Shown here piece after piece: positions 715 to 5,346 of a DNA stretch of 10,776 bases; the stretch's first letter is position 1; each line of letters begins with the position of its first letter. Position numbers and translations under genes: made by a program. Where the stretch lies: assembly GCA_044869275.1 (NCBI GenBank), contig JBIOXB010000219.1, forward strand, positions 1 to 10,776. Direction: 5' to 3'. Below the pieces are notes generated by a model. The model saw only the letters and a list, made by a program, of their open reading frames with translations. It had not been told where the DNA came from and made no database searches. This DNA comes from a bacterium. GTDB taxonomy: Bacteria > Zhuqueibacterota > Zhuqueibacteria > Zhuqueibacterales > Zhuqueibacteraceae.

Positions 715-2589
715 ATGCTCAGAAGAAGTTTGATTCCTGTCTGCCTGCTGATTTTTGCCTTTGCCGCCGCTGCACAAGAAGCAATGCCACAGCGCCCGCG
801 CAAGCTGATACGCCTCGAGGCTCAAAACTGGCAGACAGCGCAGTGGCGCGAAGCGCTTGCGTCTGACATGGATTTGGTCGATTTCGACACGCGAAAAAAA
901 AGCATAGAAGCCATTGTCACGCCTGCCGAATTAGAAACACTGCAAAAGAAAGGTTTGAGCTTCACCATTCTGCACGATGATTTAGAAGAGTATGAGCGCC
1001 AATTGCGCGCACAGGATTATTTGGATCATTTTCACGATTACCAGAAAACCGTGGATGAAATCCTGCTGGCGGAATCTTTATACCCGCAGCTCGTACAAGT
1101 ATTGGACATTGGCGACAGTTGGGAAAAAGAGCAAGGCCTGGCCGATCGTGACATTTGGGCGGTAAAGATTTCTGATCATGCGGCGATTGAGGAGGGCGAG
1201 CCGGAGGTACTGATCGTGGGCTTGCATCATGCGCGCGAGATCATCACACCGGAAATCGTGCTGGATTACATGAACTATTTGCTCGAAAATTACGGCCATG
1301 ATCCTGACGTCACATATTTGGTGGACCATCGCCAAATCTGGCTTGTGCCGATCGTGAATCCTGACGGCTTGGATTATGTGTTCAGCACGGACATGATGTG
1401 GCGGAAAAATCGGCGAAGAAACTCGAATGGTTCCTATGGCGTGGATCTCAACCGCAATTACGGCTTTAAATGGGGCTATGACAATTTTGGTTCCAGCCCC
1501 AGCGGCTCCAGCGGCACGTATCGCGGCACGGCGGCTTTCTCCGAGCCGGAGACCGCGGCTTTGCGTGATTTCGTTTCGGCGCATCAATTTCGTGCCGCAC
1601 TATCGTATCATTCTTACGGCAACTATGTGATTTATCCTTGGGCCTACGAGGACGGCCCAACGCCGGATCACGCCAGTTTTGTCGCGCTCGCCGATAGCAT
1701 CGTGGCGTACAATCATTACCAGCGCGGCACGGGATTAGAAACCGTGGGTTACACCGTCAACGGCGATTCCGACGATTGGTTTTATGGCGAGCAAACCGCG
1801 AAAAACAAAGTGTTCAGCATGACGCCGGAAGTTGGATACTGGTTTCATCCGGACACTACTGACATCAAAAAATTGATTTTGGAAAATCGCGGGCCGAATT
1901 TGTTCATCACCTATGCGGCGGGGGAGGAGCCGGTGGTGCAATCGCAGCCCCTGCCAGACACGGTGAACCAGGCGGGGCCGTATCAAGTGGTGGCGCGAAT
2001 CACCACGCCGATCATGCTCTCGGAACCGGTGGCGCTGTCGCCACAAAACTTTTTTATGCACTTCAACACTTCCGGCCAATCACCGTTCGATTCAGTGGCA
2101 TTGGCGGCAACCGGCAATGCCGATGAATACGCCGCGGAGATTCCGGCGTTCGCCGGCGGGCAGAAGGTTTATTACTATTTCTCTGCCGCGGATGAAAATG
2201 GCCGCCGCGGCCATGCCCCGCGCGCCGCGTTGGCCGGAGAGTTGTTTTCAATCTATATCCCCATGAGCACTGCCGTGCTCGACCCCGGTGCTCAAAATGA
2301 AATCCCGCAAGATTTCGCGCTGCGCGGCTTCCCCAATCCGTTTCAACGTCGCCTCGCTTTGCAATACGACGTGCCGGCAAGCCACTCCGGCGCGATGATG
2401 GTCGAAATCATCAATGTCCTGGGGCAGCGCGTGCGCTTGCTGGCGCAGGCCGAAACGCGTCCGGGTCGTCATCAAATCGAATGGAACGGCGCGGATGATC
2501 ACGGCCGTTTCGCGCCTCCCGGAGTCTATTTCTGCCGCCTGCGCACCAGCAGCTTCGCGCGCACGCAAAAAATATTGCTGGTCAAGTGA
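715..2589 (+). CDS. Secreted M14 zinc carboxypeptidase (carboxypeptidase T-like) with prodomain and C-terminal T9SS type-A/FlgD Ig-like sorting domain
   Basis: Signal peptide MLRRSLIPVCLLIFAFAAAA. M14 motifs GLHHARE (HxxE Zn ligands), WRKNR, GVDLNRNY, SYHSYG (third Zn ligand) and MTPEVG (catalytic Glu). C-terminus FPNPF...IINVLGQRVRLL...WNGADDHG..APPGVYFCRL...KILLVK. Confidence 0.93.
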   Translation: MLRRSLIPVCLLIFAFAAAAQEAMPQRPRKLIRLEAQNWQTAQWREALASDMDLVDFDTRKKSIEAIVTPAELETLQKKGLSFTILHDDLEEYERQLRAQDYLDHFHDYQKTVDEILLAESLYPQLVQVLDIGDSWEKEQGLADRDIWAVKISDHAAIEEGEPEVLIVGLHHAREIITPEIVLDYMNYLLENYGHDPDVTYLVDHRQIWLVPIVNPDGLDYVFSTDMMWRKNRRRNSNGSYGVDLNRNYGFKWGYDNFGSSPSGSSGTYRGTAAFSEPETAALRDFVSAHQFRAALSYHSYGNYVIYPWAYEDGPTPDHASFVALADSIVAYNHYQRGTGLETVGYTVNGDSDDWFYGEQTAKNKVFSMTPEVGYWFHPDTTDIKKLILENRGPNLFITYAAGEEPVVQSQPLPDTVNQAGPYQVVARITTPIMLSEPVALSPQNFFMHFNTSGQSPFDSVALAATGNADEYAAEIPAFAGGQKVYYYFSAADENGRRGHAPRAALAGELFSIYIPMSTAVLDPGAQNEIPQDFALRGFPNPFQRRLALQYDVPASHSGAMMVEIINVLGQRVRLLAQAETRPGRHQIEWNGADDHGRFAPPGVYFCRLRTSSFARTQKILLVK

Positions 2590-2605: not shown

Positions 2606-2623
2606 AAATAGAAAGCGCCGGGA
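2606..2623 (+). repeat. Left direct repeat flanking the two-gene cassette
   Basis: aaatagaaagcgccggga; 17/18 identical to aaataaaaagcgccggga at 3343-3360. Confidence 0.8.
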
Positions 2624-2670: not shown

Positions 2671-2699
2671 TTGATTTTTCGATTGCCTCTCGTTATACT
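2671..2699 (+). promoter_or_regulatory. Sigma70 promoter giving a predicted leaderless mRNA for the cassette
   Basis: TTGATT (2671-2676), 17 bp, TATACT (2694-2699). The A of ATG 2706 lies 7 nt after the -10 box, and there is no Shine-Dalgarno. Confidence 0.7.
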
Positions 2700-2705
2700 T
2701 TCAAC

Positions 2706-2948
2706 ATGGAACAATTCGAGGTGCTCTCGAAAATTTCCAGCGTCGAAACGATTGCTTGGGGACATGGCATCAAGATTCTGCCATTACTGCTCAAAAAGTA
2801 CGGCGGGAAACCTTCAGCTTGGCGCAAGAAAAAAGGCCAGGCGGTCATTCGGCAATTTGGGGTTTTGTTCCAAGCCGAATTGCATTGGTATGAAGCTCAT
2901 GGTCTCGGCAAGGTCGATATGAAAATCAAACACAAATTAAAAGTATGA
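2706..2948 (+). CDS. Small basic hypothetical protein, putative toxin of a two-gene module
   Basis: 80 aa with motifs ETIAxG, KYGGxPxxWRKxKG and AELHWYEAHGxG, which I recall from a widespread family of unannotated small proteins. Own promoter; ATGA overlap with the next gene. Confidence 0.8.
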   Translation: MEQFEVLSKISSVETIAWGHGIKILPLLLKKYGGKPSAWRKKKGQAVIRQFGVLFQAELHWYEAHGLGKVDMKIKHKLKV

Positions 2949-3229
2949 GTATTCAAGAACTGCGAAGAAAAAAGCTTGTGTTGTGCGTTGACGCGGGTGA
3001 ATACGAAGGCACGAGCTTGTTCGCCATGAAGATTTACGAGTATTTGCAAGATGCCGTCTCGGAGAAAGAGGGCTTCTTGCGCGTGGTTGACGAGGAAGGC
3101 GAGCCTTATTATTATGACGCCCGCGCTTTTCTCAAAATTACTGCGCGCCGCAATGGCCTATCGATTCCCTTCGCTTCATCACGCAAGCCGCGTTCGAAGC
3201 GAGCTGTATCGAAAGTCCGCAAATCCTGA
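2945..3229 (+). CDS. Small hypothetical protein, putative antitoxin/immunity partner
   Basis: 94 aa. Acidic beta-rich core LCVDxGxY..SL...KIYE...GFLRVVDEEGEPYYY...F plus a basic tail. Translationally coupled through ATGA at 2945-2948. Confidence 0.8.
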   Translation: MSIQELRRKKLVLCVDAGEYEGTSLFAMKIYEYLQDAVSEKEGFLRVVDEEGEPYYYDARAFLKITARRNGLSIPFASSRKPRSKRAVSKVRKS

Positions 3230-3342
3230 AGAGATCTCTATTGGGTTTTGCATATAGCGCTACTCGCCACCAGACCCGGTCTGCTTTTGAAATTGCGCGC
3301 CAACTGCAGCGTGGATTGTTTAAGAGCGAATTGATTGATGCC

Positions 3343-3382
3343 AAATAAAAAGCGCCGGGAGATGAGTTCTCCCGGCGCTTTT
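3343..3382. terminator. Bidirectional rho-independent terminator; contains the right direct repeat (3343-3360)
   Basis: Perfect 15-bp stem aaaagcgccgggaga (3348-3362), loop tgagt, tctcccggcgctttt (3368-3382). T-tracts on both strands; lies between convergent genes. Confidence 0.9.
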
Positions 3383-3447
3383 CGTTTTGCAGCACCGTCT
3401 GGACGCTGCGAGCGCCCGGACGGCGAAAGACGGTGAGAAGCACCTTC

Positions 3448-4788
3448 TTAATACACTTCGAGATAGCGATCCAATTCCCACTCGCTCACGTGCATGCGGT
3501 AGTCGTCCCATTCCTTGATTTTGGCTTCGTAGAGCTTGTCGAAGGTGTATTCGCCCAAAGCCTCGCGGATCACTTTGTCTTCCTTTAAAGCCTGCAAAGC
3601 TTCGTACAAATTGCGCGCGACGGTGGTAATTTTGCGCTCGGCGGCGTGCGCGTCGGTGAATTCGAAAATATTTTCTTCCACCGGCGGAGGCGGCGTCAAT
3701 TTCTTGTCGATGCCGTCGAGGCCCGCGGCCAGCATCACCGCGAACGCGAGGTACGGATTGGCCGAAGGATCCGGACAGCGCAACTCCACGCGCACGGCTT
3801 TCTCGCGTCCCGGCGTATAGCGCGGCACGCGCACCAGCGCTGAGCGATTGCGCTGGCCCCAGGCCACGTAAACCGGCGCCTCATAACCGACCACCAGGCG
3901 TTTGTAAGAATTAATGGTGGGATTGAGCACGGCGTTCATCGCCTGGATATGCACCATCTGCCCGGCGACGAAGGATTTGGCCAGCACCGAGAGATGATAA
4001 TCATCCGCAGCATCGAAAAACAAGTTCTTGCGTCCGTCGGCGGTGAACAGGCTTTGGTGCACGTGCATGCCCGAGCCGTTGATGCCGGCGATCGGTTTCG
4101 GCATAAACGTCGCATGCAAGCCGTGCTGGGTGGCAATGGTCTTCATCACGATCTTCAGCGTCATGGCGTGATCGGCGCAGCGCAGCGCGTTCTCGTAGCG
4201 GAAATCGATTTCGTGCTGCCCGGCAGCCACCTCGTGATGCAGCGCTTCCACCTGAATGCCGTATTCTTCCAGCGCGATGGTCATGTCTTTGCGGATCTCG
4301 TGCGCGAGATCCGTGGTTTGATCGAAATACCCGGCGCCATCATGCGGCAAAGCCGACAATTTGTGGTTCTCTTTGCGGAACAGAAAGAACTCCAGCTCCG
4401 GGCCGGTGTTGTAAAGATAGCCCGCTTTTTTCGCGCGCTCGAGCTGGCGCTTGAGAATGTAACGCGGATCGCCTTCGAACGGCTTGCCGTCGGGCATGTA
4501 GACGTCGCAAATCAGCCGCGCGGTGACGTGCGCGGTTTGCCGGGACCACGGCGAAATCGCCCAGGTGTCCAAATCCGGCGTGAGAAACATGTCGCTTTCG
4601 GAAATGCGCGTGAAGCCTTCGATCGAAGAGCCGTCGAACCACATATTGTGCTCGATCACGTCTTCGAGCTGCGCCACGGGGATGCCGACGCCCTTGGCCA
4701 CGCCGTGAATGTCAACAAATTGTAGATTGACGAATTTGACATTGTTTTCCTTAGCATGCGCAAGAATGTCGGCCTTGCTGTACGCCAT
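3448..4788 (-). CDS. glnA: Glutamine synthetase type I (GSI-alpha-like, 446 aa)
   Basis: Motifs FDGSSIEGF, GPELEFFLF, HHEVAAGQHEIDF, ATFMPKP..GINGSGMHVHQSL, NSYKRLV.GYEAP, NRSALVRVP, ELRCPDPSANPYLA. RBS AAAGGAG at 4803-4797. Confidence 0.97.
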   Translation of the reverse strand: MAYSKADILAHAKENNVKFVNLQFVDIHGVAKGVGIPVAQLEDVIEHNMWFDGSSIEGFTRISESDMFLTPDLDTWAISPWSRQTAHVTARLICDVYMPDGKPFEGDPRYILKRQLERAKKAGYLYNTGPELEFFLFRKENHKLSALPHDGAGYFDQTTDLAHEIRKDMTIALEEYGIQVEALHHEVAAGQHEIDFRYENALRCADHAMTLKIVMKTIATQHGLHATFMPKPIAGINGSGMHVHQSLFTADGRKNLFFDAADDYHLSVLAKSFVAGQMVHIQAMNAVLNPTINSYKRLVVGYEAPVYVAWGQRNRSALVRVPRYTPGREKAVRVELRCPDPSANPYLAFAVMLAAGLDGIDKKLTPPPPVEENIFEFTDAHAAERKITTVARNLYEALQALKEDKVIREALGEYTFDKLYEAKIKEWDDYRMHVSEWELDRYLEVY

Positions 4789-4869: not shown

Positions 4870-5346
4870 TCAATGCTCGCTGTGCAGGTGCTTGAGGGTA
4901 ATCACGCTTTCTTCCTTTGGGCTCGACAACACCACGTGTGTGCGCGTGTTGGTGACGCCCGGCCACGCCTGAATTTGCGCGAGCAGTTTTTCCAGCGTTT
5001 CCGTGGAATGGGTTTTGATTTTCAACAAATGCGAGCCGTCGCCGGTGATGGCGTGGCACTCCAAAATTTCAGGATGGGCCGAAGCGCGTTCGATGATTTT
5101 GGCATAGTGCGAAGGTGAATCGCTGGCAATGAAGATGAACGCGGTCAAGCCATAGCCGACCTTGCGTCCGTCCAGCACGGCGTGATAACCACGAATCACC
5201 CCCCGCTCTTCCAGCTTGCGCAAGCGTTCGCTCACTGCGGGAATGGAAAGCTTGACTTGCTCCGCCAGCTCGTTGCGCTTGGTGCGGCCCTGCAATTGCA
5301 AGGTTTGCAGGATTTGAATGTCGATGGCGTCTATCTTGTCGTGCAT
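4870..5346 (-). CDS. Lrp/AsnC family transcriptional regulator
   Basis: N-terminal HTH IDAIDIQILQTLQ..GR....ELAEQVKLS.PAVSERLRKLEERGVIRGY. C-terminal RAM domain ILECHAITGDGSHLLKI...GVTNTRTHVVLS. Confidence 0.95.
   Translation of the reverse strand: MHDKIDAIDIQILQTLQLQGRTKRNELAEQVKLSIPAVSERLRKLEERGVIRGYHAVLDGRKVGYGLTAFIFIASDSPSHYAKIIERASAHPEILECHAITGDGSHLLKIKTHSTETLEKLLAQIQAWPGVTNTRTHVVLSSPKEESVITLKHLHSEH

Follow-up and report, generated by a model that had tools for sequence, protein, structure and literature searches.

The window (the whole stretch of DNA analyzed, 10,776 nucleotides long) contains a pair of small genes, A and B, located between a peptidase gene and glnA (Table 1). A first-pass annotation had described them as coupled genes with an ATGA overlap, and both open reading frames are confirmed at the positions given in the table, with an in-frame stop 36 nt upstream of the start of A (open frame of 92 aa). 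The GC content over positions 2701-2940 is 45.8%, in agreement with the approximately 46% counted in that annotation and below that of glnA (57.3%) and of the genome (54.8%). Comparison with a close relative (L028) revealed purifying selection on both genes, with a dN of 0.077 and a dS of 0.64 for A and a dN of 0.109 and a dS of 1.28 for B.

Table 1. Features of the A/B locus and of its immediate neighbors in the window.
Feature	Position	Strand	Remarks
Gene A, 80-aa basic putative toxin	2706..2948	+	AELHWYEAHG at residues 57-66
Gene B, 94-aa putative immunity protein or antitoxin	2945..3229	+	RVVDEEGE at residues 46-53
ATGA overlap (stop of A and start of B)	2945..2948	+	Putative translational coupling
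Sigma70-like promoter, TTGATT-17-TATACT	2671..2699	+	Ends 6 nt 5' of the ATG of A; no Shine-Dalgarno-like word
18-bp direct repeat, left copy	2606..2623	+	17/18 identical; the copies bracket the pair; possible insertion scar
18-bp direct repeat, right copy	3343..3360	+	Within the left arm of the terminator-like hairpin
Terminator-like inverted repeat	3336..3394	.	27-nt arms, 85% complementary; between B and the convergent glnA
M14 zinc carboxypeptidase with FlgD-like tail	715..2589	+	Upstream neighbor; outside the A/B system
Glutamine synthetase (glnA)	3448..4788	-	Downstream neighbor; outside the A/B system

The peptidase is placed outside the system because its orthologue in a genome of the same genus (G088) precedes another gene. 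Directly upstream of glnA, and on the same strand, lies an ordinary Lrp/AsnC regulator (4870-5346, minus strand) that possibly regulates glnA. No trafficking domain or secretion gene was found at the window locus, where the neighbors are the peptidase and glnA, and the window copy contains neither a MuF domain nor phage genes; its relatives do carry MuF. Downstream of B, a 55-nt stretch (3252-3306) is conserved in relatives together with B (L195) and also at a site without an A/B match in the DNA search (L205); no Rfam family was assigned to it. No tRNA was found in the window, and no RNA family came near its Rfam gathering score. Two further pairs are present in the same genome. In one (G000:C207:18194-18686, L026), A has a single in-frame stop while B is intact; the other is of a divergent EYHWYEHPG subtype (G000:C21:10100-10717, L027). 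The B protein of the latter has an extra C-terminal domain of approximately 60 to 80 aa, and the subtype is sister to a Rhs tip.

Protein A had been described as basic with an E-L-H-W-Y-E motif, and we found the motif in place and a net charge of +9, with a pI of 10.1. All the conserved positions of the family are present (G19, L28, W39, K41, E58, H60, W61, E63, K73, and K75), the most conserved in 280 nonredundant rows being H60 and W61 (100% each), E58 and K75 (95% each), K73 (94%), and K41 and E63 (91% each). The predicted fold is beta-alpha-beta-beta-beta with a pLDDT of 94.8 (strand 11-18, helix 25-32, and strands 39-50, 53-64, and 68-79). In agreement with the first-pass annotation, A did not match the RelE, VapC, HicA, MazF, BrnT, or HEPN profiles, and no family was recovered at an E value of ≤1 in Pfam, NCBIfam, PADLOC, or PHROGs. 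Alignments of 88 members of A and B gave no named Pfam, NCBIfam, or PADLOC family and only unnamed families in PHROGs; stray Pfam rows for the window proteins and these alignments had best E values of 4e-4 to 9e-3 in one or two members, and the Colicin_D profile appeared in one of the 88 members (E value of 0.009). In the viral structure library, A retrieved its own family only (two uncharacterized proteins and one minor capsid protein), and in the ESM Atlas the matches were solely clusters labeled "hypothetical protein." Neither A nor B found anything in the PDB by sequence below an E value of 0.1. By fold, we discarded AcrIIA22 (7jta; Z of 5.2 to 5.3, rmsd of 3.5 to 3.8, 56 aligned residues, 5% identity) as background, together with PC4-like and cystatin-like rows with background-level Z scores and 5 to 15% identity (propeller blades were also listed). 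No row of the PDB fold search named a chemistry, and no BECR chain was among the matches listed; these comparisons of a predicted model would neither establish a new fold nor exclude a BECR fold. The conserved His, Glu, and Lys residues, the charge, and the context suggest that A may be a nuclease-type toxin.

Protein B had been described as having an acidic, beta-rich, possibly SH3-like core. The core (residues 9-66, net charge of -5) is indeed acidic, but the whole protein is basic (net charge of +6, pI of 9.6) because of a basic tail predicted with low confidence. The SH3-like core, at approximately residues 9 to 66, includes the segment R46-V-V-D49-E-E-G-E53-P-Y55-Y-Y57, in which D49 (99%), E53 (92%), and Y55 (99%) are highly conserved. 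SH3 domains made up nearly all of the best 50 rows of the fold search (best Z of 6.7, rmsd of 2.3, 60 aligned residues). By profile, B matched the unnamed phrog_34144 (E value of 3.5e-4) and otherwise weak rows only, and no row of the viral structure library reached an E value of ≤0.001. B consists of a single SH3-like domain plus a tail, and no HTH, RHH, or AbrB profile was found in the 88 members. As B lacks a DNA-binding domain, the autorepression usual in toxin-antitoxin (TA) modules would be missing, and control would have to rest on translation and proteolysis rather than on repression.

The predicted complex of A and B scored 0.90, against 0.01 for the best of three controls. By rough counts, with their own alignments, 116 of 157 solved complexes but just 2 of 215 mismatched pairs attain this mark. 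Contacts agreed completely (100%) between runs, and the partner pLDDT was at least 82. The predicted interface comprises residues 23-32, 60, 62, and 70-79 of A and residues 16-24 and 49-58 of B, taking in the most conserved positions on either side (H60, K73, and K75 of A; D49, E53, and Y55 of B), while Glu58 and Glu63 of A are not among its named residues. The model supports, as a prediction, direct binding of B to A. No complex resembling this one was found in the PDB by sequence or by fold. A basic A with invariant His, Glu, and Lys residues facing an acidic and aromatic B resembles a nuclease with a nucleic-acid-mimicking inhibitor, an arrangement that the Nachmias preprint (10.1101/2021.10.19.465003) describes for PT1 and PT7.

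The family is large. A profile built from 24 sequences of A retrieved 2,724 clusters (50% identity) at an E value of ≤0.001 among 1.84 billion representatives, and a genome scan confirmed at least 593 stretches (593/600). The best 80 of these 593 loci were analyzed, which, being the best scoring, lean to intact copies; among the taxa named in their titles are Acidobacteria, Chloroflexi, Cyanobacteria, Planctomycetes, and several Proteobacteria. A homolog of B was located within 250 nt downstream of A in 80 of the 81 A matches at these best 80 loci, with the single exception of a reversed order, B just upstream of A (L083:3737-4225). The same distance applied at all 25 viral loci (approximately 15 of them distinct), and a B-first scan of viral contigs recovered A upstream in 14 of 17 cases. 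The gene-neighborhood check proposed in the first-pass annotation thus gave an almost invariable pairing. The spread of the pair is patchy, as A occurs in 30 and B in 34 of the 151 genomes of a phylum sample, and in close relatives the pair is found at a different site in each. Only 1 of 72,556 plasmid records contained it (one query), unlike classic addiction modules, which we count against an addiction reading. None of 50,697 records of cultured phages matched (one phage-type query).

Outside free-standing pairs, the A domain is a C-terminal tip: it ends no more than 25 aa from the C terminus in 223 of 225 long proteins. The first-pass annotation had mentioned fusions to MuF or minor capsid proteins, and such fusions, with a small R[IV]VD..GEDYLY gene downstream, are real. 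Among 12 long viral proteins scanned, we assigned six to MuF1, two to MuF2, and three to portal proteins, leaving one unassigned, and 67 long matches picked from the best 150 comprised 34 MuF1, 17 MuF2, two VG15, one LPD3, and 13 without assignment. A Rhs core was present in 8 of 19 fused proteins scanned, and among 40 proteins the carriers included PT-HINT in three and PT-TG in one. Cleavage at the HN-C site of PT-HINT is established. In the PT-HINT proteins found here, the A domain begins within approximately 10 to 15 residues of that site, so that the released tip would have about the length of a free-standing A. The Rhs cassette (L132/L189) has the cognate B downstream. At this Rhs-type locus (L189:258-15001), orphan tip/immunity cassettes follow a 2733-aa gene; they include an A/B pair, and at least three carry different tips. 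Portal proteins (PF06381) of 824 to 851 aa combining a NUDIX and an A domain were observed at six loci (L002-L006 and L019).

The placement at the C terminus of several unrelated trafficking scaffolds is characteristic of polymorphic toxins, and the family shows it, while the window copy is free-standing. By the criteria for tips set out in parts of PMC3482391 and PMC5576092, this architecture marks A as the toxin and B as its immunity protein. The pairing in a fixed order, the position at the tip of larger toxins, the predicted binding over conserved residues, and the one-way decay of A described below all agree with the toxin plus immunity pair proposed in the first-pass annotation, and we consider this assignment very probable.

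The decay of the pair was followed in every A/B match of the 151 genomes, amounting to 65 modules, of which 4 at contig ends were set aside. The remaining 61 modules have both genes intact in 23 cases, a broken A with an intact B in 15, no detectable A with an intact B in 13, and neither gene intact in 10. Therefore, an intact A without an intact B was never seen (0/23), while an intact B without an intact A was seen in 28 of 51 cases. These counts include L027 as intact, scored by hand because its open frame failed only the K-x-K rule (the script gave 22 and 16); one of the intact pairs is a Rhs cassette and another has a changed Trp39, and two of the "absent" A genes show degraded remnants by eye. 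The sample consists mostly of metagenome bins of related genomes, with rows that are not independent and with possible assembly errors, but such errors are a poor account of the pattern because they would not be one-sided. In another 61 genomes, sampled around L057, both A genes found had an intact B, and six B genes had no A, five of them with the whole core. Decay in this one direction would be expected of an A that does harm when B is missing. At one further locus (L122:1501-2232), an insertion of approximately 270 to 300 nt disrupts A close to its end, and B is intact.

The same decay could also be read differently, with the free-standing pair as an orphan tip/immunity cassette retained on account of its B gene. 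B would protect the cell against the same toxin delivered by Rhs proteins or by MuF-carrying phage heads, A being a decaying passenger. The 28 intact B genes without an intact A, 13 of them without any detectable A, fit this possibility, as do the two or three tandem B genes that follow one A or stand without A at L071, L100, and L216, like small immunity arrays, and the proximity of the free-standing groups to Rhs tips in the tree described below. Against it, A is under purifying selection, it has its own start and promoter at many loci, 23 modules keep both genes, and the gain of a degron-like tail by B (see below) would not be expected. Moreover, the window B is only approximately 21 to 35% identical to phage B, which makes cross-protection doubtful. 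All in all, we regard such an immunity store as unlikely.

The first-pass annotation had taken the pair to derive from a phage polymorphic toxin. The branching of phage and free-standing copies was examined in an unrooted tree of 70 rows and 79 columns, comprising 28 of the 55 phage rows, 31 of the 66 free-standing rows, and every one of the 11 rows of secreted toxins. A single branch (97/97) separates the 28 phage tips from all other rows. Among the free-standing rows (31), there are two groups, each sister to a Rhs tip (98/85 and 97/88), and a topology holding them together was rejected (P = 0.027). A phage origin is thus unsupported by this tree of 79 columns, in which the phage tips stand apart and both free-standing groups lie beside Rhs tips. 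The tree is short and unrooted and leaves the direction unset; it suggests that free-standing pairs arose from Rhs-type toxins, or were exchanged with them, at least twice.

Among 150 nearest neighbors, most of the annotated ones were housekeeping genes and approximately 10 were TA or restriction genes (by crude ORF calling and with no matched control), and no integrase, transposase, or phage profile was found at an E value of ≤1e-6. The 18-bp repeat of the window has no third copy in the genome at one mismatch. Flanking direct repeats of at least 17 bp are enriched: they occur at 10 of 73 loci, with no case in 73 swapped, 10 in 1133 own small genes, and 4 in 248 shifted. As a general insertion mechanism we rejected these repeats, at least two of which are repeated elements (an attC-like site at L107 and a repeat at L073); we do not claim a single mechanism, because some brackets are attC sites or other repeats. 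At L107 (3740-4530), the pair lies between two attC-like sites, that is, in an integron cassette array, and adjoins BrnA-like and MazE/HicB-like genes (names given by eye). At two other loci (L031 and L032), the pair is located between genes for a pyrR-like phosphoribosyltransferase and an aspartate/ornithine carbamoyltransferase, inside a likely operon.

This setting also bears on a role in defense by abortive infection, in which A would be freed either by a phage protein or when a phage shuts off host expression, and would then halt translation. A labile antitoxin and a stable toxin would suit such a trigger, some copies are found beside HicAB, MazE, RelE, BrnA, Mrr, or an Eco57I-type gene, one copy is in an integron cassette, and the spread is patchy (30/151 genomes). 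Conversely, PADLOC 2.0.0 (library of 2023) has no model for the pair, with 0 families at an E value of ≤1 for both window proteins, the neighbors are mostly housekeeping genes, and the window copy itself stands between a peptidase gene and glnA. The anti-phage module put forward in the first-pass annotation was not borne out by these data, and we give abortive infection a low probability, although it is compatible with the addiction module favored below, of which it would be the purpose. Even less probable is a nonenzymatic nucleic-acid- or protein-binding A (PC4-like or cystatin-like) with B as a regulatory partner, because the top fold rows that would suggest it (AcrIIA22 and the PC4-like and cystatin-like scaffolds, Z of 4.3 to 5.3) are at background with 5 to 15% identity, and because a harmful enzyme better suits the invariant H/E/K set, the placement of the domain as a tip behind the cleavage motifs of Rhs and HINT, and the decay in one direction.

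Free-standing copies have features of their own at both ends of the pair. A -10 box is found 5 to 9 nt 5' of the start of A at 22 of 77 loci (shuffles gave a mean of 6.5 and a maximum of 12) and at 279 of 4436 crudely called genes of the window's own genome, and the combination with a TTG -35 box occurs at 13 of 77 loci versus 38 of 4436 own-genome genes. With its promoter ending 6 nt 5' of the ATG and no Shine-Dalgarno-like word, the A transcript of the window is predicted to be leaderless. Against a strictly leaderless message counts an RNA contig of a 95 to 99% similar strain, whose first position (2659) lies 47 nt upstream of the predicted start. RNA from one study gave four contigs, which span 2659-2899 and 3034-3268 at a depth of 2 to 3; we do not count them as proof of expression because DNA carry-over is possible.

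At the other end, free-standing B proteins extend at least 13 residues (mostly approximately 17) beyond the conserved core, versus 4 or 5 residues in 10 of 13 phage B proteins. An Ala-Ala end is present in 15 of 77 free-standing B proteins (8 of 52 when close copies are left out) and in none of the 13 phage B proteins, the controls being ORFs of these loci (4 of 273) and of the window's own genome (35 of 3617); of the 54 B proteins in the phylum sample, only 7 have it. Free-standing A proteins end in D or E in 43 of 77 cases. Phage immunity proteins are short and acidic ended, whereas free-standing ones are tailed and often Ala-Ala ended. In the E. coli screen, as summarized in portions of PMC10862746, a terminal Ala-Ala dominates ClpXP degrons but is not sufficient for degradation, and an Asp-ended tag is nonfunctional. 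The tail of the window B is basic and lacks Ala-Ala; its likeness to the MuA-type C-motif-2 degron, which excerpts of PMC12723719 describe as basic, is loose. We consider a tail-driven lability of B possible for the family, at slightly less than even weight, and unlikely for the window copy.

With moderate confidence, we interpret A/B as a toxin-first type II TA (addiction) module in which A would probably be a metal-independent RNase blocked by B. A nucleic acid is a fairly likely target of A, and an RNase activity stands at even chances; a metal-independent one is favored because a single His accompanied by acidic residues, and no His cluster, is conserved. In such a module, A would be made at a low rate from the leaderless message and the translation of B would be coupled to that of A. 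The D49-E50-E51-E53-Y55-Y57 segment of B, with the 16-24 loop, is predicted to cover His60, Tyr62, Lys73, and Lys75 of A as a nucleic acid mimic. B would be short-lived in many members of the family by means of the added C-terminal tail ending in Ala-Ala, while A tends to end in Asp or Glu, so that B would decay first and A would be freed once the pair is no longer expressed or its locus disappears. The free toxin would then cut RNA by His60 with Glu58 or Glu63 and Lys41/73/75, in a putative active-site geometry.

More tentatively, we propose that domestication of the pair has given rise, on at least two occasions, to a TA module without a repressor, by losing the carrier, acquiring a leaderless toxin promoter, and adding an ssrA-like tail to the immunity protein. 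It would combine an SH3-fold partner with a nuclease for which no structural relative has been solved, both from a large unnamed family present in Rhs, type VII-type, MuF, and portal weapons. If this reading is true, it provides a direct and testable case of an interbacterial weapon turned into an addiction module. The contrast between short phage B and tailed free-standing B also opens to testing the passage from an immunity protein to a labile antitoxin.

The pair shares with type II TA modules the two small proteins, the predicted direct binding, the absence of export, the patchy spread, and the one-way decay. It differs in being almost absent from plasmids and in the antitoxin, which would be an old immunity protein with a new tail and has no DNA-binding domain, a usual but not universal component in type II. 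HigBA and HicAB are also toxin first. The sharing of toxin domains between TA modules and polymorphic toxins is already known, so the kind of system is not new: the relevant sections of Zhang et al. 2012 (PMC3482391) give BECR RNases, RES, and Ntox24 as common to both, with the TA form of Ntox24 paired with a different antitoxin. Compared with the polymorphic toxin/immunity systems treated in those sections, with Rhs, PT-HINT, and PT-TG carriers, the window copy lacks a carrier or export domain; A and B match no Ntox or Imm model of Pfam or NCBIfam, and the immunity fold is here SH3-like. In common with the MuF toxins of temperate phages (Jamet et al. 2017, PMC5576092), the A domain is found at the tip of MuF1 (PF04233), MuF2 (PF06152), VG15, and portal proteins, with an ORF of <150 aa after it, but A is not a named MuF tip by Pfam, and the phage tips are on a separate branch from the free-standing copies.

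We found no description of the A/B family in the literature, and its motif did not turn up in the supplements of PMC5576092, PMC9424270, and PMC13483458, the last of which has 24 W10XG families, nor in the DNA table of that paper; such tables may list accessions only. The family, which spans many phyla, gut-type prophages, and Rhs arrays, seems to be unnamed, and its members continue to be labeled hypothetical. With it come a candidate toxin that has no solved structural relative, an SH3-fold class of immunity proteins, and a likely function for many MuF and portal extensions of unknown type.

Two described groups are close to A in some respects. Ntox9, in the one-line motif description of Zhang et al. 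2012 (PMC3482391), is mostly beta with RxY, E, WxE, and H, and a colicin E3-like mechanism is proposed for it. The order E...WxE...H fits E58, W61xE63, and H65 of A, and Rhs carriers are shared; by this description alone, A differs in having no conserved RxY and in the invariant His directly before the Trp, and Ntox9 is listed there without MuF carriers or an immunity protein. The PBECR1-5 domains of polyvalent proteins, predicted RNases in the portions of Iyer et al. 2017 (PMC5512222) devoted to them, are likewise fused to MuF and portal proteins, but no PBECR profile matches the A domain, and in one protein (P0075) PBECR3 (residues 60-129) and the A domain (210-288) are apart from each other. 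In two other proteins, the A domain occurs with a MuF intein (P0095) and in an LPD3 polyvalent protein (P0165).
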